From a virus (Duplodnaviria; Caudoviricetes), in the IMG/VR virus record IMGVR_UViG_3300037067_004891, positions 357,674 through 421,673 of that record: a stretch of 64,000 nucleotides of DNA; one strand, written 5' to 3'. Positions 4,251-53,301 of this stretch are shown here, one piece after another. The notes below the pieces were generated by a model. The model was not told the origin of the DNA. It ran no database searches and saw nothing but the letters and a program-made list of their open reading frames with translations. The first letter of the stretch is position 1. The number at the start of each line of letters is the position of its first letter. The translations under genes were made by a program, and so were the position numbers.

Positions 4251-6185
4251 ATGGCTCAATTATTAAAAGGTAAGCAGATTGCACAGCAAACCATAACTAT
4301 AAAAGGTGCAACTGGTAATGTTGTGGTTCAAGGTGACTTAGATATGTCCACATATAATGTGGTAATATCTGGAACACCTACTGCCAACAATCAAGCTGTT
4401 AATAAGGCTTATGTTGATGCAGTAGCACAAGGATTAATACCACATCCACCAGTAAAAGTTGTAGCACTTACAACCGTAGCATCATTAACAGGACTTACAA
4501 CAGTAGATGGATACTCTTTATCTGCTGATGATAGAGTTCTTTTAGTCAATCAAGGTGGAACAGGTGTTGGTGATTCTGATATTCAAAATGGTTTATGGTT
4601 AGCAAAAGCTGGCGCATGGTTAAGACCAACAGATGCAGATGGTACACCTGAAAACGAAGTTGCTTTAGGTGATTTTGTGTATGTTGAAACTGGTACTACT
4701 TATACATCATCAGGTTGGGTGTTAGCTGGTACTGATGGAAACTCAAATAATAATATTGAAGTTGGTATAGAAGCTCAACAATGGGTACAAGTTTCCGCAC
4801 CTGGACAATATGGTACAGATGGTGAAGGTATTGAACTCGTTGGAAACATATTTAATCTTGAATTAGATGGTTCAACTTTAAGTAAAACATCTTCTGGTAT
4901 AAGAGTTGCAGCATCAGTAATAACAGTTATTTCAAATAATCAAAGTAACACGACATCATTATCAACAGCTATTTCAAGTGAGCTTTCTACAAGAGGTACT
5001 GCGGACACATCATTATCAACAGCTATTTCTGGAAATACATCTGCTACAACATCATTATCAACAGCTATTTCAACAGAAGTGTCTACAAGAACATCTACTG
5101 ATTCAACTTTATCAACAGCTATTTCAACAGAAACTTCAACAAGAAATTCAGTTGATGTTTCATTATCAACTGCAATAAATAATAGTATTACTGGTTTAAC
5201 CAATGGCAATGGAACAACCGCAAACGGAACTGCTGTAAATTTTGGGGGAATATTATCTGATAATACCTATATAGATTTAAGTTCAAGCACAATGGAATTT
5301 TGGGGTGAATATGGGGAGATTGCAATGGGACGGGGTATATCAGAATCGGGTGATTATGATTATCTTGGGATCGATGGTCTTGGAATAAATGTAACAACTG
5401 AAAATGGACAAGGTATTAAATATGTAGCAGATTATTCTAAAACATTACTTGATAATTCATTAGTTAATAAAGGATTTGTGACAGGTTACACATCAGGTAT
5501 GACTTTAAATATATCTTCTTTATCAACAGCTATTTCAACTGAAGCTTCAACAAGAACTTCTACTGATTCAACCTTATCGACAACTATTTCAACTGAAGCA
5601 TCTACAAGAACATCTGCTGATACATCTTTAGCTACTGGTATTTCAACTACTGTTTCAACAGAAGCCTCTATAAGAGCATCAGCCGATACTTCGTTAAGTA
5701 CTGAAATTGCTGCTATTACTTCTGGTTCTACTGCTGGTGTTGATTCATTATCAACAGCATTATCGAATGAAATATCTACAAGAGGTACTGCTGACACATC
5801 ATTATCAACAACTATTTCAACTGAAGCATCTACAAGAACATCTGCTGATTCTTCATTAGCAACAGCAATCAGTAATATTCAAGCTCCAAGTTATTTCGAG
5901 CAGTTATTAACTCCAGCAATAAGTGGTTCTTCAACTGCTGTAAATATTGGTACTGCTTTTGCTCACGGTGTAACTGGTGGGGTAATTGATGAATCTACTG
6001 TTATAGTATTCTTTAACGGCATTGAATATACCTTCGAATATGTACAAGGTTCACCTGCTGTATTCCATACAAACGGTGTCACACCTACATCTGCTGGAAC
6101 TCCATTATATTTTGATGGTGTAGAAGCTGGTTTCGCAATCGAAACAACTGATGACGTTAAAATTAAATATGTAGTAACTACATAA
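4251..6185 (+). CDS. Ser/Thr-rich phage fibre protein with SLST coiled-coil repeats
   Basis: AVNKAYVD motif and a phage tail-type domain (VDGYSLSADDRVLLVNQ...QNGLW...W.RPTDAD...YVETGT), followed by ~18-aa STEASTRTSADTSLSTAI repeats. Confidence 0.75.
   Translation: MAQLLKGKQIAQQTITIKGATGNVVVQGDLDMSTYNVVISGTPTANNQAVNKAYVDAVAQGLIPHPPVKVVALTTVASLTGLTTVDGYSLSADDRVLLVNQGGTGVGDSDIQNGLWLAKAGAWLRPTDADGTPENEVALGDFVYVETGTTYTSSGWVLAGTDGNSNNNIEVGIEAQQWVQVSAPGQYGTDGEGIELVGNIFNLELDGSTLSKTSSGIRVAASVITVISNNQSNTTSLSTAISSELSTRGTADTSLSTAISGNTSATTSLSTAISTEVSTRTSTDSTLSTAISTETSTRNSVDVSLSTAINNSITGLTNGNGTTANGTAVNFGGILSDNTYIDLSSSTMEFWGEYGEIAMGRGISESGDYDYLGIDGLGINVTTENGQGIKYVADYSKTLLDNSLVNKGFVTGYTSGMTLNISSLSTAISTEASTRTSTDSTLSTTISTEASTRTSADTSLATGISTTVSTEASIRASADTSLSTEIAAITSGSTAGVDSLSTALSNEISTRGTADTSLSTTISTEASTRTSADSSLATAISNIQAPSYFEQLLTPAISGSSTAVNIGTAFAHGVTGGVIDESTVIVFFNGIEYTFEYVQGSPAVFHTNGVTPTSAGTPLYFDGVEAGFAIETTDDVKIKYVVTT
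4950..5875 (+). repeat. Intragenic ~54-bp repeats (tcattatcaacagctatttcaac...) in two blocks
   Basis: Repeated SLSTAISTExSTR units are visible in both DNA and protein. The same unit recurs at ~39360-39545. Confidence 0.85.
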
Positions 6186-39293: not shown

Positions 39294-40562
39294 ATGCATA
39301 ATAAAGCGATATATATAAATGAAGCAGCTTATGTTGAAGGAATACTTGTTACAGGAGTCACATCGTTATCAACAGCTCTTTCATCTGAAATATCTGTGAG
39401 GGGTAGTTCTGATACATCTTTATCGACAGCTATTTCAACTGAAAATTCTACAAGAAGTTCTGGTAATATTTCATTATCAACAGCTATTTCAACAGAATCT
39501 TCAACAAGAGGATCAGTCGATACGTCTTTATCAACATCTATTAGTAATGTTATCAATGGTAGTAGTACATCAAATTTTATATTCGGTGCAACTGGTAGTG
39601 GAACTAATCATGCAAGTGTTATACAAAATTTGTTTGAATTACCACAATATAAATCGGGCTTTTGGGATATAAGTGGTGCTACTTGGACACCAAGTACTGG
39701 TTGGTTTTGGGGATTAACTATGGCACATAATTTAAATACATCAGGTTATAATTATAGTACTCAAATATGTTCTAATTATGTAGCACCAGTAAGTTTATAT
39801 ACAAGAAACATATATGGTGGTGCATCACCAATTGCTACTTCTTGGTATAAAATTTGGTGTGCCAATAATGATGGTGCTGATTCTGGTCTGGATGCTGACT
39901 TGTGGGATGGGTATCAATTTACTGATTATTTAAATCAGTCGGTCAAAAGTGGTTCAACACCTACTTTTGCTGGTATAAATTTCACTGGTGATTTAACAGT
40001 TGAATCACAAAATACGTATGATATTGGCACAACATCAGCATATCATAATCAAATTTATAGTTATCAATTTATTGCATATGCTACTGGTTCTAACATACCT
40101 GCTTACGCTTTCAATTCTGATACCAATACTGGATTTTATCAAGCATCTGCAAACTGGGGAAATATTGGTGTGTTGTTGGATAATGTTGAAGAATTTCGTT
40201 TTGCAGCAGGTGGAACTTTTCACGCTGATGCTGATATTGTCGCATATTCATCAACTGTATCTTCAGATAGAAGATTAAAAGAAAATATAACAAATATAGA
40301 CAGTGGTTTATCGATTATTGAAAAATTAAATCCAGTTTCTTTCACTTGGAAAGAAGAAAAAAGATCAAAAGATGGTGTTAATTTTGGTTTAATAGCACAG
40401 GAAGTTGAAGAAGTGTTACCTGATATAGTAAAAGAATTTATTTTATTAAATCTTGATGAACAATTATACAAAACAATAAGATATGAACAAATAATTCCAT
40501 TTTTAATCAAAAGTATACAAGAATTAAAAACAGAATTAGATAATTTAAAAAATAAAATATAA
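39294..40562 (+). CDS. Tail fibre with SLST repeats and C-terminal peptidase S74 intramolecular chaperone
   Basis: SDRRLKENI...LNPVSFTWK...GLIAQEVEEVLP...YEQIIPFLIKSIQEL; GADSGLDADLWDG. Confidence 0.85.
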   Translation: MHNKAIYINEAAYVEGILVTGVTSLSTALSSEISVRGSSDTSLSTAISTENSTRSSGNISLSTAISTESSTRGSVDTSLSTSISNVINGSSTSNFIFGATGSGTNHASVIQNLFELPQYKSGFWDISGATWTPSTGWFWGLTMAHNLNTSGYNYSTQICSNYVAPVSLYTRNIYGGASPIATSWYKIWCANNDGADSGLDADLWDGYQFTDYLNQSVKSGSTPTFAGINFTGDLTVESQNTYDIGTTSAYHNQIYSYQFIAYATGSNIPAYAFNSDTNTGFYQASANWGNIGVLLDNVEEFRFAAGGTFHADADIVAYSSTVSSDRRLKENITNIDSGLSIIEKLNPVSFTWKEEKRSKDGVNFGLIAQEVEEVLPDIVKEFILLNLDEQLYKTIRYEQIIPFLIKSIQELKTELDNLKNKI

Positions 40563-43228: not shown

Positions 43229-45496
43229 TTATATATTAATTTTAAGAAGTTTATTAATTAAATCAAACAATTCTATTTTATTTATAGGTTTAGATACATA
43301 TCCATTAAATCCCATATTTAAACAATCAACTTTATCATTTTTCATAGCATATGCAGTTTGAGCTATGATAATAGCATTTGGGTTTAAATCTCTTATCCTT
43401 TCTTTAGCTTCAATCCCATTCATAATTGGCATCTGTATATCCATTAATATAATATCTGGATTATATTTAACAAAATATTCTAATGCTAATTTACCATTTT
43501 CAGCGTGTATTAAATCACAACCTGTGTTTTTAATAATTTCATATAAATATTCATAATTGGTCTGCATATCTTCAACTATTAAAATTTTTTTTCCACGCCA
43601 ATCATAATCATTGATATCGAAAATAGGATCGTCCAACTGTTTGTAATCTATAACAGGATTAAATGGAACAGTAAAATAAAAAATAGTACCTTCTTTAGAT
43701 TTGGATTCTAACCATATATCACCGCCCATCATTTTAACCAAATTCAAACAAATATTTAAACCGAGTCCAGTTCCACCATATTTTCTGGTTTTACTTTCAT
43801 CAATCTGTCTAAATCTTTCAAAAATTAAATCTTTATATTTTTTATCAATACCAATACCAGTATCCTTTACAAAAAATTCTAATTTATCACCATTAATTAA
43901 AAAACCATATTCAATATACCCTTCTTCTGTGAATTTGATAGCGTTACTTATTAAATTTGATAAAACTTGTTTCACACGATATGGGTCAATATATGCTAAT
44001 AACTTTTTTGTTTTTGAACAACTTTCACAAATAAGATTTATATTTTTATTATTGAATTTAATTTTATTTTTATAAGTAGTATACAAATCTACCATAATAT
44101 TATCAATATAAAATTCAATTTCTTCTATTTTCAATTCATCAGCCTCTATTTTAGCAATGTCTATGATGTCATCGATCAATTTTAACAATTCATCACCACT
44201 TTCATTTACTATTTGAATATATTCAGCTTTCTCTTTTATTGTTATATTATCGTCTTTTAATAAATCAGAAAACCCAACTATAGCATTCATAGGTGTTCTG
44301 ATTTCATGAGATAAATTAGCTAAGAAAGCTGATTTTAATTTATCTGCTTTTTCTGCTTTTTCTTTCGCTTGTTCCAAATCGATAATATATTGTTTTCTAT
44401 CTGATATATCTCTTATTATTGTTAATAATCTGTCTTTACCATCATAATTAATTATTTTACCAGCCATTAAACCAGTTTTTTCTTCTCCATTTTTTAATAT
44501 AAATTCGACTTCATAATTATAATATTCTCCATTATTTTTTTTTAATATTTTTATCATTTCATCTCTTTTTTCAGGATGTTTCCAAATATTCAATTCATAA
44601 ATAGTTTTACCAATACATTCAGACCTATTCCATCCAGTGTTTTTTTCAAATGAATTATTAACTTCTAAATATTCAGATGTTTCTAAATCTGTGACAAGAA
44701 CAGAATCTGGAATAAACATAAATATTTTTGTAAATTTATCTTCACTCAATTTTATTATATTTTCCATTTCTCTACGAATAGTTGTATCTCTTGTAAAAAC
44801 GAAAACATATTCTTCATCATCAATTTTAAAGTAGTTTAAAGAAGCTTCCATTGGAAAGTTTTCACTGTTTTTAGTAAGATGAAAATGTTCCAATGTTATA
44901 TTTTTTTTCTTTTTTAAAATATTAAAATATTCTTTCCATAAACTTCGATATTCTTTTGGTACAAGTTCGTACCAAGATTTTTTTTTATTTATTTCACCTT
45001 CACCATAACCTAACATTTCATGATAAGAAATATTACAATATGTTATATCGCCATTTAAACTTAACCACATCATTCCTTCTTTGGTATTTTCTATTGAAAA
45101 TTCCTTCATCTTTAAAACTTTTTCAAGTTCTTTTTTATTAGTTATGTCTTCTTTAACAGCAACATATTTTAATATATTACCTTCATCATCTTTAAAAGAT
45201 GATATGGAAGCGGATTCCCAATAGAATGTTCCATCTTTTCTTTTATTATGAAATTCACCTTTCCACTCTTTACCTAATGATATAGTTTCCCATAATTGTT
45301 TATAAAATTCGTTTGTTTGTAAGCCAGATTTTAATATACTTGGTTTTTGACCCAAAACTTCTTTCTTAGAGTAACCAGATACTTCTATGAATTTGTTGTT
45401 TACAAATTCTACAACACCATTTTTATCTGTTATAATAATACTGGCAGGTGAACATTCAACAGCTTTCAATAAAATTTCGGTGTTTATAATAGACAT
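43229..45496 (-). CDS. Hybrid sensor histidine kinase (3 PAS + HisKA + HATPase + receiver)
   Basis: PAS/PAC segments, FLANLSHEIRTPMN H-box, NLISNAIKFT, VKDTGIGI, GGTGLGL, ILIVED...ILMDIQMP...KP. Confidence 0.95.
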   Translation of the reverse strand: MSIINTEILLKAVECSPASIIITDKNGVVEFVNNKFIEVSGYSKKEVLGQKPSILKSGLQTNEFYKQLWETISLGKEWKGEFHNKRKDGTFYWESASISSFKDDEGNILKYVAVKEDITNKKELEKVLKMKEFSIENTKEGMMWLSLNGDITYCNISYHEMLGYGEGEINKKKSWYELVPKEYRSLWKEYFNILKKKKNITLEHFHLTKNSENFPMEASLNYFKIDDEEYVFVFTRDTTIRREMENIIKLSEDKFTKIFMFIPDSVLVTDLETSEYLEVNNSFEKNTGWNRSECIGKTIYELNIWKHPEKRDEMIKILKKNNGEYYNYEVEFILKNGEEKTGLMAGKIINYDGKDRLLTIIRDISDRKQYIIDLEQAKEKAEKADKLKSAFLANLSHEIRTPMNAIVGFSDLLKDDNITIKEKAEYIQIVNESGDELLKLIDDIIDIAKIEADELKIEEIEFYIDNIMVDLYTTYKNKIKFNNKNINLICESCSKTKKLLAYIDPYRVKQVLSNLISNAIKFTEEGYIEYGFLINGDKLEFFVKDTGIGIDKKYKDLIFERFRQIDESKTRKYGGTGLGLNICLNLVKMMGGDIWLESKSKEGTIFYFTVPFNPVIDYKQLDDPIFDINDYDWRGKKILIVEDMQTNYEYLYEIIKNTGCDLIHAENGKLALEYFVKYNPDIILMDIQMPIMNGIEAKERIRDLNPNAIIIAQTAYAMKNDKVDCLNMGFNGYVSKPINKIELFDLINKLLKINI

Positions 45497-45542: not shown

Positions 45543-46019
45543 ATGAAATATATAGATAAATTTGGAGTATTTGAAAGATATAAACCAGAAGAAACTACAA
45601 AAGGTGAATATTTTCATTTTCTAACAAAAGCGTATGATGTTGAAAAAGCATGGGATTTGATTCGAAAAAATACAGAAAAATTTATTAAAAAAGATGGTTC
45701 TTTTTATGAACTTCCAGTAGATGATTTTTATAAGTTAGTTTCAAGGACATTTGATGAAGATGGTGTCCAAGTATAAGGAGATGAAAGAGTAATGGGAAAA
45801 ATATATAAAACAAAGTTTGGCGTAACAGTTGATAAAAAAATCGCAAATGATATAACAGAAGAACAATTAAAAGACCCAGCTATTTTTATAATGGATGGTG
45901 ATTTTCATATGTTAATTGACGGTTGGAAAAGAATATATAAAGCTAAAAAATTAGGCATCAAAACAATAAATTGTTATGTCATACAAGATGAAGCTGATTT
46001 GAAAAAAATCAGATTATAA
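45543..46019 (+). pseudogene. ParB/Srx-like protein interrupted by one in-frame TAA (45774-45776)
   Basis: The two ORFs are in the same frame. The second half has LIDGWKRIYKAKKLGIKTI, a ParB-like motif. Confidence 0.55.
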
Positions 46020-46040
46020 TTACATCTATATTTTTTATTG

Positions 46041-46078
46041 AAAGAGAATCACAAAATCTTTAGTTTAGCGGTAGTTTA
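46041..46078 (+). mobile_element. Minimal IS200/IS605 end remnant
   Basis: aaagagaatcac joined to aaatctttagtttagcggtagttta; these match the two ends of the 54670-55068 element. Confidence 0.4.
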
Positions 46079-46209
46079 TTTGTAATTTTCTTTAATTCAA
46101 TTTTTAACCGCTTTAAAATTAGTTGTTATCATCTTTTGGTTTGAAATAGGTGCATGACTGTATCGATTCATTAATTCATAAAATTCTTGTGAATCTAATA
46201 AAAGATGAA

Positions 46210-46510
46210 GTTGTGTCAACCCTCATTTTTGTATGTTCACTCACCTCACGAATGCAAAAATCCAAAAGTCCAACATGTTGTGTCAACCCTCATTTTTGTA
46301 TGTTCACTCACCTAAATTATGGACGTACATAAATGGCTTCCCGTTGTGTCAACCCTCATTTTTGTATGTTCACTCACCAATGAAAGAACTTACAAAAACA
46401 ACGGTATCTGTTGTGTCAACCCTCATTTTTGTATGTTCACTCACCAGTCCGTTGGCAGAAACATTTTGAAAATCGTTGTGTCAACCCTCATTTTTGTATG
46501 TTCACTCACC
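46210..46510. CRISPR. CRISPR-like array 1: 5 identical 36-bp repeats, 4 spacers (31, 30, 31, 29 bp)
   Basis: Repeat GTTGTGTCAACCCTCATTTTTGTATGTTCACTCACC at 46210, 46277, 46343, 46410 and 46475, with unique spacers. No cas genes recognised in the window. Confidence 0.95.
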
Positions 46511-46788
46511 ATACCACCCACTAATTCATTAGCATTCAATCTGTTAAGATGATATTTCGTTTCTAAAACTTGATAAATTTTATAATAATCATAATATAAA
46601 GTGTGATTTTTTAAATTGTAGTTAAAATAAACTATATTATCTTTTTTCCCAATTAAAAATTGGGAATTATACTTAAAAATATACTTAGAATCAACCCACT
46701 CAGTATCTTTAATTATTTGCCATAAAAAATACTTCGGGCTTCTGGCTTCCTGTATCTTTCGAATTATATCTGATATATCTTCTTCCAT
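46441..46788 (-). CDS. Array-fused small protein A; C-terminus encoded by the first repeat plus first spacer
   Basis: Near-identical paralog at 52580..52903. Reads ...GGMVSEHTKMRVDTT-IFKMFLPTDW*. Start MEEDI chosen by paralogy. Confidence 0.8.
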   Translation of the reverse strand: MEEDISDIIRKIQEARSPKYFLWQIIKDTEWVDSKYIFKYNSQFLIGKKDNIVYFNYNLKNHTLYYDYYKIYQVLETKYHLNRLNANELVGGMVSEHTKMRVDTTIFKMFLPTDW

Positions 46789-46828
46789 TTTTAATTTTAA
46801 AAATCGAAAAATATCCATATTAATTTTT

Positions 46829-47980
46829 TTAAATTGAATAAAAATTTTTTCTTATTTGTTGTAAGACATACTTGGAAAATTTTTCATCTATATCATCTTT
46901 CAAAGTGGATGTTTTATAGACAGCTTCTATTTCTAAAATTTTATCATCAGAATCTTTTATAATATCATCATATTCCCTATTACCATGCTTTATATCTAAT
47001 AATAACTCTCTGTCTGGTCGTTTAACAATTACCCCCTTCCCTTGTCCAATTTCAAGACACATTGTTAATAATCTTGTTAGATGTAAAAGATTTTTTGAGT
47101 CATAGTTCTTACCATGTTTCATATTGGTATCATAACGAACTGGATTTCTTTTTGCAACCCACGACCAATATTCAGAGTAGTCCTTACAATAAGATGTGTA
47201 ACCATCTTTATTATAAGAAAAAATACATTTTGGTGTTTCAGTTTCTCTTACAGAACTGTACCTTAATTCATTTGATACAAGTTCACCCGCTTCGTTTTCT
47301 TTTACAATTCCTTTATATCCTTTAAATGAATCTTTAAATTTTTTAAATGCTTCAAGTCCATCTTTTTCTTCTATACTATCATCAAAACAAGCATGTGAAA
47401 ATTCATCATAGAATAACGAAAAAACGTCTCTTGCGTTAGGGACATTAACTATACCACAAAACTTTTGATTAAGCCCATTCTTGCTTAAAAAGCGTTTTAA
47501 TGGGTATGTTTTGTAACCATCAATAACAAAACAAAATTCCAGTGGACTCTTTTTTTCTTTAGCAACTGGTTTAACAATTTTTTTATTTAAACCTCTGGCT
47601 TTTTTTATTTGTTGTTCGGCATATTTACCAAAAGTTTCTTTTAGTTTTTTGGAAATATATTTTTCTTTATTTTCTAATAAAATATCAAAACATTCGTGTT
47701 TAATTCGAATTTTTTCTTCTGGAGAAAATAATAATTCGACTGCTGTCGGATTTGATTTATTAAGAAGTTCGATGAAACGTCCAATTTCGAAATAAGTTAT
47801 ATCATTTTTTTCATCAGATACCTCAGTAATATAATCATCAGACAATACATCATCTAAAGGAAGTACAAATACTCCTTTATAATCAATATCTGAATTAGCT
47901 TCATTTAATCCATAAGCATGAGAGCCTGTGAGAGCTTCAAATATGATTAGATTTTTATCTTTAAGGTCTTGTATTGTCAT
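46829..47980 (-). CDS. RlaP/YcgL-like DNA polymerase beta-superfamily nucleotidyltransferase
   Basis: GSHAYGL...SDIDYKGVF, L.KSNPT.VELL, YDSKN..H..RLL. Confidence 0.8.
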   Translation of the reverse strand: MTIQDLKDKNLIIFEALTGSHAYGLNEANSDIDYKGVFVLPLDDVLSDDYITEVSDEKNDITYFEIGRFIELLNKSNPTAVELLFSPEEKIRIKHECFDILLENKEKYISKKLKETFGKYAEQQIKKARGLNKKIVKPVAKEKKSPLEFCFVIDGYKTYPLKRFLSKNGLNQKFCGIVNVPNARDVFSLFYDEFSHACFDDSIEEKDGLEAFKKFKDSFKGYKGIVKENEAGELVSNELRYSSVRETETPKCIFSYNKDGYTSYCKDYSEYWSWVAKRNPVRYDTNMKHGKNYDSKNLLHLTRLLTMCLEIGQGKGVIVKRPDRELLLDIKHGNREYDDIIKDSDDKILEIEAVYKTSTLKDDIDEKFSKYVLQQIRKNFYSI

Positions 47981-48041: not shown

Positions 48042-49283
48042 TTGTTATTAAAAGATTTTCCTAAATTATTTTCTCAATTACATTCTACTAAAAATGGAAA
48101 TATAGATACAAATAACGTATCTTATAAAAGTGGATTGAAAGTCTGGTGGGTGTGTGATAAAGGTCATGAATGGCAAGCTAAAATATTCAGTAGAATGGAT
48201 GGTAATAATTGTCCATATTGTTCTGGTAAATTTTTTTCAGAAAAAAATTCTTTTGTATACAATTACCCTGAATTAATAAAAGAATGGGATTATAATAAGA
48301 ATATAAACGTGGATATTCACAAAATAAAATATTCGAGTAAGTTAAAAGTTTGGTGGAAATGTAAATATGGTCATGAGTGGGAAGCTAAAATATTAAATAG
48401 AACTATAAATAAAAGTGGATGTCCGTATTGTTCTGGAAGTCTTTTAACAGAAAAAAATTCTCTTGTATATAATTACCCTGAATTAATAAAAGAATGGATT
48501 TTTAATAAAAACACGAAATTTGATATCAATAAAATCACATATGGAAATAAAACTAAAGTTTGGTGGAAATGTAAAAATGGACACGAATGGGAAGCTTCTA
48601 TATTAAATAGAACTACTAAAAATAGCCAATGTCCAAACTGCAATTTTAATAATACTTCACAGATTGAAATAAGATTATATTGTGAGTTAAAATGTATTTT
48701 TTCTGATATTTATAATAGAAAAAAAATAAATAATATTGAAGTTGATATATTTATACCACTAATAAACCTTTTAATAGAATATGATGGTAGTTATTGGCAC
48801 AAAAATAAAGAAGATGTAGATTTAAAAAAGAACGAAATATTAAAAGAAAATAATTATAATATAATAAGAATTCGAGAATACCCATTATGTGTATTAAATA
48901 ATAATGATATTATATACATCCCTAAAAATAAGTTTTTAAATACAATTAAAGAATTACTTATTTTAATTAATAGTAAATATGTAATACCTGATTTATATAA
49001 AAAAAGAATATATGAATACTTAAAAACAGATTCATATTTAAACCCTGTCGAATATAATGATATTATCAATAATTTAATTATGCCTATAAAAACAAATTTA
49101 TCAATTGTATATCCCAATATTAATAAAGATTGGAATGAATATAAAAACGGTTTGTTAAAATTAGATATGTTCTCTAAAGGGAGTCATAGAAAAGTTTGGT
49201 GGAAGTGTGAAAATGGACATGAATATGAAAGAACAATTAAAAATAAATTTAAATATAATAACTGTCCAATTTGTAAAAGGTGA
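48042..49283 (+). CDS. Zinc-ribbon repeat (DUF4379-like) protein with PD-(D/E)XK/DUF559-like nuclease domain, a probable homing endonuclease
   Basis: Four KVWWxC..GHE(W/Y)...CP.C repeats; EVDIFIP....IEYDGSYWH. Opposite strand to its neighbours. Confidence 0.75.
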   Translation: MLLKDFPKLFSQLHSTKNGNIDTNNVSYKSGLKVWWVCDKGHEWQAKIFSRMDGNNCPYCSGKFFSEKNSFVYNYPELIKEWDYNKNINVDIHKIKYSSKLKVWWKCKYGHEWEAKILNRTINKSGCPYCSGSLLTEKNSLVYNYPELIKEWIFNKNTKFDINKITYGNKTKVWWKCKNGHEWEASILNRTTKNSQCPNCNFNNTSQIEIRLYCELKCIFSDIYNRKKINNIEVDIFIPLINLLIEYDGSYWHKNKEDVDLKKNEILKENNYNIIRIREYPLCVLNNNDIIYIPKNKFLNTIKELLILINSKYVIPDLYKKRIYEYLKTDSYLNPVEYNDIINNLIMPIKTNLSIVYPNINKDWNEYKNGLLKLDMFSKGSHRKVWWKCENGHEYERTIKNKFKYNNCPICKR

Positions 49284-51585: not shown

Positions 51586-51963
51586 TTAATAATCTATATC
51601 AGATAATTTTCTTGGGTGTTTACCTAAAAAATAAGTATACTTAGATGAATTTATTTCACCTAAAATTAGTTTATCCATTACATATCTGTCATAACCATTT
51701 GGTAAATAATGTTCAGATACATCAAATATATTTCTCTTTTTATAATGAAACCTATAATGTATAACAAACCCAAATGGTGACCACTGCTCAATAAAAAAAT
51801 ATGGTGATTCATCAACATTTGATATTAATTGTGAAATTATATCTTTTACTTTTATTAATTCATCATCACCAAATTCTGATTGGTTAGCTTGTTCTAAACT
51901 ATTATTTTTTAAAGATAATTGTTGTATAAGTCTTAGTTCTTTTAGTTTGTCTATGTCGTCCAT
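51586..51963 (-). CDS. Hypothetical protein
   Basis: ORF just beyond the distal end of array 2. Confidence 0.45.
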   Translation of the reverse strand: MDDIDKLKELRLIQQLSLKNNSLEQANQSEFGDDELIKVKDIISQLISNVDESPYFFIEQWSPFGFVIHYRFHYKKRNIFDVSEHYLPNGYDRYVMDKLILGEINSSKYTYFLGKHPRKLSDIDY

Positions 51964-52008
51964 TTATTTTACTTAATAGATTTTGTAAATGTTGATAATT
52001 CTGACTCA

Positions 52009-52637
52009 ATTGTGTCCACCCTCAATTTGAAATGTTCACTCACCTATATTGAAGGATTTGACCAATTTTATCGATGTTGTGTCAACCTCATTTTTGTATG
52101 TTCGAACACCACAATAAATCACTGAACTATAACATGTTGCGTTGTGTCAACCCTCATTTTTGTATGTTCGATCACCACAGAAACAACGAATACTTATTGC
52201 CCGCGGTTGTGTCAACCCTCATTTTTGTATGTTCGATCACCTAAAAAAATATGGCATGTTTCATAAACTTGGTTGTGTCAACCCTCATTTTTGTATGTTC
52301 GATCACCTAACGGCAAGAAGCCAACGAACAAAGACAGTTGTGTCAACTCTCATTTTTGTATGTTCGATCACCAAGCAATCTCATGCTCTCAGCCTTTGAT
52401 ATGTTGTGTCAACCCTCATTTTTGTATGTTCGATCACCTCACAAACGGGTTGCTTGTGAGAGGCTTTGTTGTGTCAACCCTCATTTTTGTATGTTCGATC
52501 ACCAGATTATTATGTTTTATGCTGGTGAAATTGGTTGTGTCAACCCTCATTTTTGTATGTTCGATCACCTCTCGGGTATTCAACATACCAGAGAAAAGGT
52601 TGTTGTGTCAACCCTCATTTTTGTATGTTCGATCACC
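52009..52637. CRISPR. CRISPR-like array 2: 10 repeats, 9 spacers (29-32 bp)
   Basis: Consensus GTTGTGTCAACCCTCATTTTTGTATGTTCGATCACC at 52141, 52206, 52272, 52337 (1 mismatch), 52403, 52468, 52534 and 52602. Degenerate copies at 52076 (35 bp) and 52009. Confidence 0.95.
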
Positions 52638-52903
52638 ATACCCTTAATCAATTCATTAATAGTTAGATCATTAAGATGATATTTCGTTTCTAAAACTTGA
52701 TAAATTTTATAATAATCATAATATAAAGTGTGATTTTTTAAATTGTAGTTAAAATAAACTATATTATCTTTTTTCCCAATTAAAAATTGGGAATTATACT
52801 TAAAATCAAACCACTCAGTGTCTTTAATTATTTGCCACAAAAAATATTTGGGACTACGAGCTTCTTGTATCTTTTTTATTATGTCTAAAATATCATTTTC
52901 CAT
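52580..52903 (-). CDS. Array-fused small protein B; C-terminus encoded by the first repeat plus first spacer
   Basis: Paralog of 46441..46788. Reads ...KGMVIEHTKMRVDTT-TFSLVC*. Confidence 0.8.
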   Translation of the reverse strand: MENDILDIIKKIQEARSPKYFLWQIIKDTEWFDFKYNSQFLIGKKDNIVYFNYNLKNHTLYYDYYKIYQVLETKYHLNDLTINELIKGMVIEHTKMRVDTTTFSLVC

Positions 52904-52905
52904 GA

Positions 52906-53301
52906 TTATATACCCAGATGTTTCTTACTATTTTCAATATACTTTTCGATATTAACTGAACCAACCGTATTAGATGAATGAATAAGACAATTTGGTAATT
53001 TTAATTTATTATCCATACAATAATCAACAAGCCATTTAATACAATCATATCCAGTTCTCTCTTTTATTTCGCCATCTTCGATTATGAAATCCGATATATC
53101 GTGGTCAAAACTGATGTTAATAGGTAATTTATCTTCGGTTATTTTATACACAAATTCATCAAAAGATTTAACAATAATCCAGTTTTTATCAATATAAACA
53201 GGATTACCAGTCACATTATAAACCATCTGAATAGTTCGGTAATCATCGAGTATTAGATTATAATCCATGTTCTGACAGTCTATTTTTGAATTTATCTTCA
53301 A
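52906..53301 (-). CDS. Cyclic-phosphate-processing receiver-like (cREC) protein
   Basis: LILDDYR, W.IVKSFDEF, ISFDHD, TGYD..KWL, IHS.N.VG. Confidence 0.65.
   Translation of the reverse strand: MKINSKIDCQNMDYNLILDDYRTIQMVYNVTGNPVYIDKNWIIVKSFDEFVYKITEDKLPINISFDHDISDFIIEDGEIKERTGYDCIKWLVDYCMDNKLKLPNCLIHSSNTVGSVNIEKYIENSKKHLGI

Follow-up and report, generated by a model that had tools for sequence, protein, structure and literature searches.

Polarised repeat arrays joined to a small coding gene in a huge phage, with signs of growth at the gene end

Introduction

In canonical CRISPR adaptation, as known from E. coli type I-E and S. thermophilus type II-A, Cas1-Cas2 integrates new spacers at the leader-repeat junction, the first repeat is duplicated and the terminal repeat is degenerate. 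The DNA analysed here raises the question of whether an array can grow in the same polarised way when the sequence next to its first repeat is the end of a protein-coding gene. The window, the whole stretch analysed, comprises 64,000 nucleotides of a giant landfill phage (bases 357674-421673 of the 421,673-bp IMG/VR record IMGVR_UViG_3300037067_004891; G+C 25.7%). An earlier note, made from the letters of the window, had described two arrays and proposed that the second grows at its gene end by copying the repeat inside the gene.

In PMC12607003 the clade of this phage is predicted to infect Bacteroidetes. The paper counts the arrays, lists speculative effectors, and treats two arrays away from any cas or tnpB-like gene as orphans whose possible effectors would be encoded at another place in the virus or by the host. 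Term searches of it returned no 'leader' and no passage on a gene-repeat fusion, on array polarity or on cassette mosaicism. In the literature searched the gene-array fusion appears to be undescribed.

Anatomy of the two arrays

The features on which the argument depends are the following (window coordinates).

Array 2, 52009-52637, units given on the plus strand: ten repeat units, nine spacers
Unit 1, 52602-52637, minus strand: gene-embedded repeat of Ile (ATC) type, identical to units 2-4 and 6-8
Units 2-8, 52141-52569, minus strand: seven ATC-type repeats with spacers 2-7, spacers 1 and 8 lying just outside
Unit 9, 52076-52110, minus strand: ATC-derived repeat of 35 nt, at edit distance 2 from unit 1
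Unit 10, 52009-52044, minus strand: relic of the FKL subtype, 35/36 identical to the repeat of the cassette at 59.4 kb
Array 1, 46210-46510, minus strand: five identical repeats, four spacers
Gene A, 46441-46818, minus strand: cassette paralogue of Ser (AGT) type, a listed ORF
Gene B, 52580-52903, minus strand: cassette paralogue of 107 aa, a listed ORF
Gene directly downstream of array 2, 51586-51963, minus strand: conserved, 125 aa, synteny anchor with contigs L016/L017 and relative G003
Gene directly upstream of gene B, 52906-53301, minus strand: cREC_REC domain, 131 aa, second synteny anchor

A whole-genome mismatch scan together with reading of the sequence gives array 2 ten units of 36 nt with a period of 65-68 nt, the regular spacing of near-identical direct repeats of 23-50 nt that is expected of CRISPR. 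The eight gene-proximal repeats start at 52141, 52206, 52272, 52337, 52403, 52468, 52534 and 52602 and end in CGATCACC. Seven of the eight carry the full repeat GTTGTGTCAACCCTCATTTTTGTATGTTCGATCACC; unit 5 (52337-52372) departs from it by a sole C>T change at 52348. Unit 1 lies inside gene B and codes for (M)VIEHTKMRVDTT. Unit 9, the oldest in the ATC series, has lost one C from a CCC run, carries ATC>TTC and ends in CGAACACC. Unit 10 reads ATTGTGTCCACCCTCAATTTGAAATGTTCACTCACC, differs from the array 2 consensus at 8/36 positions and ends in CACTCACC, which also ends all five repeats of array 1 (starts 46210, 46277, 46343, 46410 and 46475). The last of these, at 46475, falls within gene A and codes for VSEHTKMRVDTT. 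The four and nine spacers of the two arrays have none in common, and each matches only itself within the arrays. The earlier note had recorded the two kinds of repeat ending, the deletion at 52076 and the lack of any shared spacer among the 13, and on all of these it was accurate.

Several traits place array 2 among CRISPR arrays. As in canonical arrays, the proximal repeats are uniform and equal to the first one, variants lie at the far end (units 9 and 10 being degenerate terminal repeats at the trailer), and the spacers are unique and of uniform length, the nine measuring 29-32 nt and none recurring in the arrays of the genome. It is also a short array free of cas genes on a viral genome, its neighbours being RlaP-like, cREC_REC and unknown genes, which is the orphan or mini form. 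It differs from canonical arrays in that the element lacks cas1/cas2, no cas gene lies beside the array, and the position of a non-coding AT-rich leader is taken by a conserved coding gene, an ORF under purifying selection that runs into the first repeat.

The surroundings hold other features. Directly upstream of gene A (46829-47980) lies an RlaP-family nucleotidyltransferase gene of the RNA-repair pathway; cREC_REC denotes a cyclic-phosphate processing receiver protein, and both RlaP and cREC_REC belong to RNA-repair contexts. By eye, the translation of a 755-aa ORF (43229-45496) resembles a PAS sensor histidine kinase that ends in a receiver domain. The tandem repeat of 210 nt at 48210-48620 encodes four DUF4379 treble-clef zinc-finger modules of a 413-aa protein (48042-49283), which has a DUF559/Vsr-like endonuclease domain as well, though a weak one. 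Tandem Repeats Finder locates 54-nt (18-codon) repeats of one family at two distant sites, 5007-5864 and 39411-39542.

A coding gene that runs into the first repeat

Genes A and B enter the first repeat in frame, and the repeat product is (M)V[I/S]EHTKMRVDTT. The repeat opens with the G of a Met codon and closes with the two bases AC; whichever base a spacer begins with then completes a Thr codon (ACN). The 12 codons of the repeat are open in the gene's frame. TGA opens the repeat in both non-coding frames (GG-TGA; GGT-GAG-TGA, or a later TGA in the Ile type), so an out-of-frame tail leaving spacer 1 stops at once. A 30-nt spacer lets translation pass through the whole second repeat, as in the 180-kb cassette. 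In gene B the first repeat forms the last 13 conserved codons, and a tail of six residues (TFSLVC) and the stop follow in spacer 1. The tail of gene A, IFKMFLPTDW, is coded by spacer 1 plus the beginning of repeat 2.

Over the 88 codons upstream of the repeat, pairwise dN/dS among the cassette gene paralogues is 0.16-0.41. Third codon positions take the largest share of their differences (411/247/523 for positions 1, 2 and 3), and the length of the indel among them is a multiple of three. Judged by these patterns, the cassette gene is real and under purifying selection. Inside the repeat the constraint is weak and not decisive, with variable sites at 7/5/7 by codon position and a pooled pN/pS of 0.55. 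Seventeen metagenomic homologues all end ...MVSEH[FT]K..VDTT and then continue into unrelated tails, some of them (P0012-P0014) reading through a second repeat. The protein has no match in Pfam, NCBIfam or PADLOC and no PDB match to its fold at E<=0.001, its AlphaFold model being of medium confidence (pLDDT 70). Genes A and B also contain a perfect 21-nt palindrome, TTCCCAATTAAAAATTGGGAA, with 9-bp arms (46646-46666 and 52773-52793); it lies in a 135-nt stretch identical between these two genes, and the other paralogues are without it.

A family of gene-array cassettes

The earlier note had counted two modules. The genome in fact holds seven gene-array cassettes, at 23, 59, 163, 180, 208, 404 and 410 kb, plus one remnant at 190.6 kb in which 42 codons are joined to the 3′ 24 nt of a repeat. 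Across the family the arrays contain 0-9 spacers. The remnant (genome 190603-190750; L009 4603-4745) lies directly upstream of a Cas12f-like gene and is followed by unique sequence. Its 42 codons resemble gene A, and G003 has no such remnant at this site. Either a crRNA-like regulator or plain debris is conceivable.

G003 is a relative phage of 675 kb, 98% complete, whose Cas12f is 93% identical to that of this phage. Cassettes A and B are precisely absent from it, and the flanking genes abut there (window 46013-46813 and 51964-52903 against G003 269068-269423 and ~265430; flanks of 73-88% nucleotide identity). With the flanks conserved and abutting, the two cassettes behave like insertions in this comparison of sequences. 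On another phage record, IMGVR_UViG_3300014204_000906 (L018/L019, ~590-1690), a cassette with two repeats and a truncated third is accompanied by a lone perfect repeat 932 nt further downstream, enclosing two small ORFs, with a large serine recombinase gene adjoining.

Polarity of the arrays

To measure polarity, every unit of 13 arrays, taken from this phage and from six other contigs, was compared by edit distance with the repeat embedded in its gene. Eleven of these arrays comprise three or more units with some variation among them, and in each of the 11 the single most divergent unit is the one farthest from the gene. Under uniform position this would occur by chance with a probability of ~8e-7, and the pattern survives when doubtful units at distance >=14 are dropped. 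One array, L030, is an exception in spirit, its embedded repeat differing by 3 from the next one; it looks as if the first repeat mutated since the last addition. The uniform direction of the gradient supports growth at the gene end, the units next to the gene being probably young and homogeneous and the far units old. The earlier note had proposed this from array 2, and the 11 variant-bearing arrays agree with it throughout.

Its further proposal, that insertion takes place inside the coding sequence and changes the C-terminus, is borne out in its logic. An insertion at the junction of gene and first repeat would keep ...MV[S/I]EHTKMRVDTT and swap only the tail; the insertion event itself was not seen. 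No strain pair with shared distal and differing proximal spacers came from IMG/VR, JGI metagenomes or exact-protein look-ups, where arrays are identical or wholly different only. An independent ENA assembly, ERZ27247358, has identical contigs for the arrays at 59, 180, 208 and 404 kb. Its contig L071 is identical for spacers 8-9, decayed unit 9, relic unit 10 and the downstream 125-aa gene, and stops where the perfect repeats of array 2 begin, thus covering the distal part only. More distant relatives have no spacers in common with this phage.

A distal relic and a mosaic gene

The far end of array 2 records an older state of the locus. The earlier note had described its distal repeat as degenerate and of array-1 type. 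The eight differences and the ending CACTCACC are as it said, but the repeat is a relic of another subtype: seven of the eight differences are the exact states of the repeats in the cassette at 59.4 kb, whose two repeats encode VSEHFKLRVDTT (the 'FKL' subtype), the majority state in metagenomic homologues. The orthologous locus of a more distant phage (L016/L017; upstream cREC_REC gene at 69% and downstream 125-aa gene at 63% amino acid identity) has a cassette made of a gene, one embedded repeat, 11 nt and a truncated FKL repeat directly against the downstream gene, in which 21 of the first 24 nt match the FKL subtype. From the 35/36 identity and this second FKL remnant, unit 10 reads as the ancestral repeat of the locus retained at the trailer end and not as a product of random decay. 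At a DnaJ-linked locus, the 180-kb array and that of G003 have no spacer in common and differ in repeat subtype, and both end in a repeat truncated after ...AAAATGAG. Thus at two orthologous loci the distal-most unit is the only one common to the phages.

Gene B itself is a mosaic. Its nt 1-90 have the 180-kb gene as nearest paralogue; over nt ~100-245 it cannot be told from gene A, four 30-nt windows showing 0 differences; and the 36 nt upstream of the repeat belong to the 59/163-kb type and depart from gene A at 12 positions. The last ~120 nt and the Ile-type repeat show 1-2 differences from a cassette of another phage (L015, on IMGVR_UViG_3300037067_010608), whose first 180 nt differ throughout from gene B. 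The L015 array has four ATC-type units by the gene and one AGT-type unit at the far end, and its spacers differ from those of array 2. Read along its length, gene B is a recombinant of at least three cassette lineages. The earlier note had derived both modules from one CACT-type ancestor. The order of states it implied stands, Ser/AGT being ancestral and Ile/ATC derived; the single line of descent does not, as the ATC repeat came with the 3′ end of the gene by recombination. Given the mosaic and the ATC repeat common to gene B and the 3′ gene end of L015, the history of the cassettes is reticulate and not a simple descent of two modules. Two further contigs, L023 and L024, match this phage at 100% over the array and past it, and then drop abruptly to 84-95% identity inside or upstream of the gene. 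In L023 exactly array 1 follows a different gene body and upstream context, the switch being sharp and lying immediately upstream of the repeat; this contig could be an assembly chimera. Alignments of this kind clearly point to frequent recombination between cassettes, so part of the homogeneity near the gene could come from gene conversion and not from stepwise growth.

A probable route to array 2 and its competitors

On balance array 2 is probably, with room left for real doubt, a genuine polarised CRISPR array with a coding gene as leader, in which an FKL cassette was overwritten by recombination and nine units were then added on the gene side. An older cassette with FKL-type repeats, the type that the L016 phage still has, would once have occupied the locus. 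Recombination with other cassette lineages would have replaced the gene and its embedded repeat, the incoming piece consisting of a 3′ gene end and an Ile-type (ATC) repeat like those of the L015 phage, and the last FKL-type repeat would have been left behind as a fossil. Nine units, each a spacer plus a copy of the embedded ATC repeat, would then have been added in situ, one at a time, beside the gene, and the deletion and substitution would have arisen later in the oldest repeat of the ATC series. The leader would meet the first repeat within the Met codon located 13 codons ahead of the point where conservation in gene B stops, with gene-embedded unit 1 as the presumed template for each addition. 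Each addition would preserve ...MVIEHTKMRVDTT, because the last Thr codon is ACN and is completed by any spacer first base, and would replace the short tail alone. The new tail would end in the spacer or, in both non-coding frames, at the TGA from the start of the next repeat (GGTGA...). The integrating enzyme would presumably be host Cas1-Cas2 or a factor from an unsequenced or unrecognised part of the phage; we know of no integrase for cassette additions.

The same mosaic lends itself to a different account, in which the gradient is itself the work of recombination, array 2 having been imported or patched from other cassettes and its proximal repeats homogenised by gene conversion. The three-part structure of gene B, the sharp joint in L023 with a similar one in L024, and the precise presence or absence of cassettes A and B relative to G003 are what it would predict. 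We regard it as unlikely. The spacer flanking the FKL relic has no homology partner for a second crossover, so nine ATC units beside an intact FKL relic are hard to produce by homologous exchange, and importing them would need an illegitimate join. No donor array carrying the nine spacers of array 2 was found in IMG/VR or JGI metagenomes, the decay of unit 9 and the order of the variants fit age and not patchwork, and L023 may be the chimera mentioned above. It is simplest to suppose that a short conversion replaced the gene with its first repeat and that the units added afterwards were copied from the replacement, which is the model of the earlier note with its history amended.

Growth at the gene end would also be illusory if the arrays were static fossils, the gradient then reflecting stronger selection on the units nearest the gene, for example when only the coding first repeat is constrained or only the first few crRNAs are made. 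The closest strain contigs do carry invariant arrays, and the number of spacers per array is small (0-9). The search for adaptation genes was negative: Cas1 and Cas2 (PF01867, PF09827) are absent from this record, which is 59% complete by the tool's estimate, and Cas1 (PF01867) is absent from the 98%-complete G003. The adaptation module of a CRISPR-Cas locus, cas1 and cas2 on the same replicon, is thus missing from a record that may be incomplete. This account is nevertheless quite improbable, since units 2-8 do not code and yet six of the seven repeat the coding unit exactly. Where cassettes have 120-135 nt of identical gene sequence they still have no spacer in common, which means that the arrays change their content at a higher rate than the genes accumulate differences. 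The perfect matches of first spacers to the present genome suggest recent acquisition.

Spacer targets and strand

The spacers are 28-32 nt long, and of the 28 in this genome three match genes of the phage itself perfectly: A_s1 at 338395-338423, g163k_s1 at 256664-256692 and g180k_s5 at 184111-184141. Two of these three (A_s1 and g163k_s1) are first spacers. A spacer of another phage, L026_s4, has a perfect match in this genome, and g208k_s3 matches a 19.6-kb virus contig at 29/30 positions. Perfect or near-perfect matches lie in this phage, in the relative G003 and in another virus contig, and the spacers look like real acquisitions; some spacers of the sister cassettes match mobile DNA, as happens in canonical arrays. 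The nine spacers of array 2 have no match in this genome, G003, the other fetched loci or GenBank phages. In the 163-kb cassette the tail that g163k_s1 gives the small protein, EKYDLRVVN, repeats a peptide of the target protein.

On the gene-sense strand NAAAA follows all three self-protospacers and none of the three non-self ones. Five of six protospacers, including the three self-protospacers, are in the same sense as the target ORF. NAAAA would suit a T-rich 5′ PAM on the opposite strand, and with this in mind the crRNAs might be read from the plus strand of the window, the true leader being gene-distal and the overlap with the gene incidental. TTTTN would then stand 5′ of all three perfect self-protospacers, like a type V PAM, and five of six protospacers would yield crRNAs complementary to target mRNAs. 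The arrangement is very unlikely all the same: the degenerate or relic units lie on that side in 11/11 arrays, as expected of a trailer and not of a leader, no conserved sequence follows the distal unit, the three non-self protospacers are without the motif, and the repeats carry terminator-like hairpin and T-run motifs on that strand. These motifs occur on the gene-antisense strand only; together with the trailer relics, this strand bias weakly favours transcription from the gene into the array. That the units are not CRISPR at all but a bank of alternative C-terminal segments, moved beside the gene by deletions between repeats, is scarcely credible, since the open 12-codon repeat and the 30-nt spacers that permit reading through a second repeat (g180k cassette, homologues P0012-P0014) are outweighed by spacers whose matches lie, on one strand or the other, in coding sequence of this phage and its relatives, in-frame stops in many spacers, TGA at the start of both other repeat frames, and unit sizes (36 + 28-32 nt) that are classic for CRISPR.

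Cas genes, effectors and known systems

The repeat is absent from ~185,000 bacterial and archaeal species representatives, and array 2 has no match among GenBank phages. One effector alone is clear, a Cas12f/V-U3-like protein of 423 aa encoded at 191 kb (PADLOC Cas12u3, 1.8e-65; PDB 8HR5, 6.6e-36). Its locus, of type V-F, has its own tracr region and an array of six repeats with a different 36-nt repeat, and lies ~213 kb from array 1 and ~219 kb from array 2, so neither has the adjacent cas12f and same repeat of a type V-F array. A cassette remnant upstream had made Cas12f a candidate partner of the arrays discussed here; with its own array of a different repeat found, the link is a lead only, and the remnant is absent upstream of cas12f in G003. 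The fused repeats and the Cas12f repeats of this phage and G003 agree at 22-27/36 positions (z = 2.8-5.0 against shuffles), the similarity being about equal in reverse complement. The V-F locus has 36-nt repeats and ~30-nt spacers like the fused arrays. The fused repeats give no stable fold in either orientation and in this resemble tracrRNA-dependent systems. A k-mer search for an anti-repeat gave low-complexity chance matches only, and when RNA duplexes with the Cas12f tracr region were scored, even the cognate repeat could not be told apart from shuffled sequences. From the likeness of the repeats and their unstructured nature it is conceivable that Cas12f serves the fused arrays in trans.

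PF07282 has nine matches in the genome. Seven lie in open frames 377-451 aa long, at ~46, 190, 192, 228, 274, 299 and 322 kb, which makes seven full-length TnpB/Cas12f-like open frames in one phage genome. A classical IS200/605-type TnpB adjoins an HNH endonuclease just upstream of the Cas12f locus.

In the omega-RNA of TnpB/IS200-IS605 a guide scaffold overlaps the 3′ end of the coding sequence. The cassettes are alike in that one piece of DNA both closes an ORF and supplies the constant portion of a guide RNA; they differ in that the omega-RNA ORF is the nuclease itself with one guide, and here an unrelated small protein precedes an array of several spacers. Type VI-B (Cas13b) arrays of Bacteroidota have 36-nt units, ~30-nt spacers, repeats running from GTTG... 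to ...CACAAC and no cas1/cas2. The fused arrays resemble them in unit and spacer size and in the lack of cas1/cas2, and may resemble them in repeat sequence too. PMC12607003 reports no Cas13 from CRISPRCasTyper for this element and lists a speculative Cas9 for this phage; the Cas9 model cas_Csn1 (TIGR01865) has no match in this genome. The orphan and mini arrays of huge phages (PMC12607003; see also Al-Shayeb et al. 2020, PMC7162821) are likewise short, several of them dispersed over a jumbo-phage genome, and mostly far from cas genes, with spacers aimed, as in this family, at related viruses.

Origin of the repeat and implications

Where the repeat came from may be hinted at by G003, in which the family HMM finds two array-less paralogues, at 236.7 kb (E = 4e-28; 236729-237136, 126 aa) and 511.7 kb (E = 2e-9; 511740-512174, 136 aa). 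The second sits at the locus syntenic with the 163-kb cassette of this phage. Their alignments enter the repeat-encoded segment (...LIKEVVRECFN... and ...IIRTVVSDYFN... against ...LIKGMVSEHFK...), and the proteins extend ~35 residues past it. This suggests, as a lead taken from aligned sequences, that the coding role of the segment predates the array. It is possible, if doubtful, that the repeat arose out of, or came to overlie, coding sequence that a small phage gene already had, so that the gene serves as promoter, leader and first repeat.

If this is true, every new spacer would leave its record as a fresh C-terminal tail of a conserved protein. The protein, a factor linked to the array and so far undescribed, might for example recruit an integrase or protect or process the transcript, and a phage without cas genes could hold its guide libraries, and pass them on, in the form of self-contained cassettes. 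CRISPR leaders are commonly regarded as non-coding, and nobody expects adaptation to alter a protein; growth at the gene end, if true, would make each immunisation event change the C-terminus of a conserved protein and would place the leader-repeat junction under coding, integrase and guide-RNA constraints together. The relic repeats are a rare internal record of a change of repeat family, in which recombination would overwrite the first repeat and later additions spread the new version. The cassettes are compact and self-contained, and appear to be precisely gained and lost between genes and to recombine among giant phages. They thus bear on how viruses without adaptation genes may maintain guide libraries and on how new arrays and repeats may originate.
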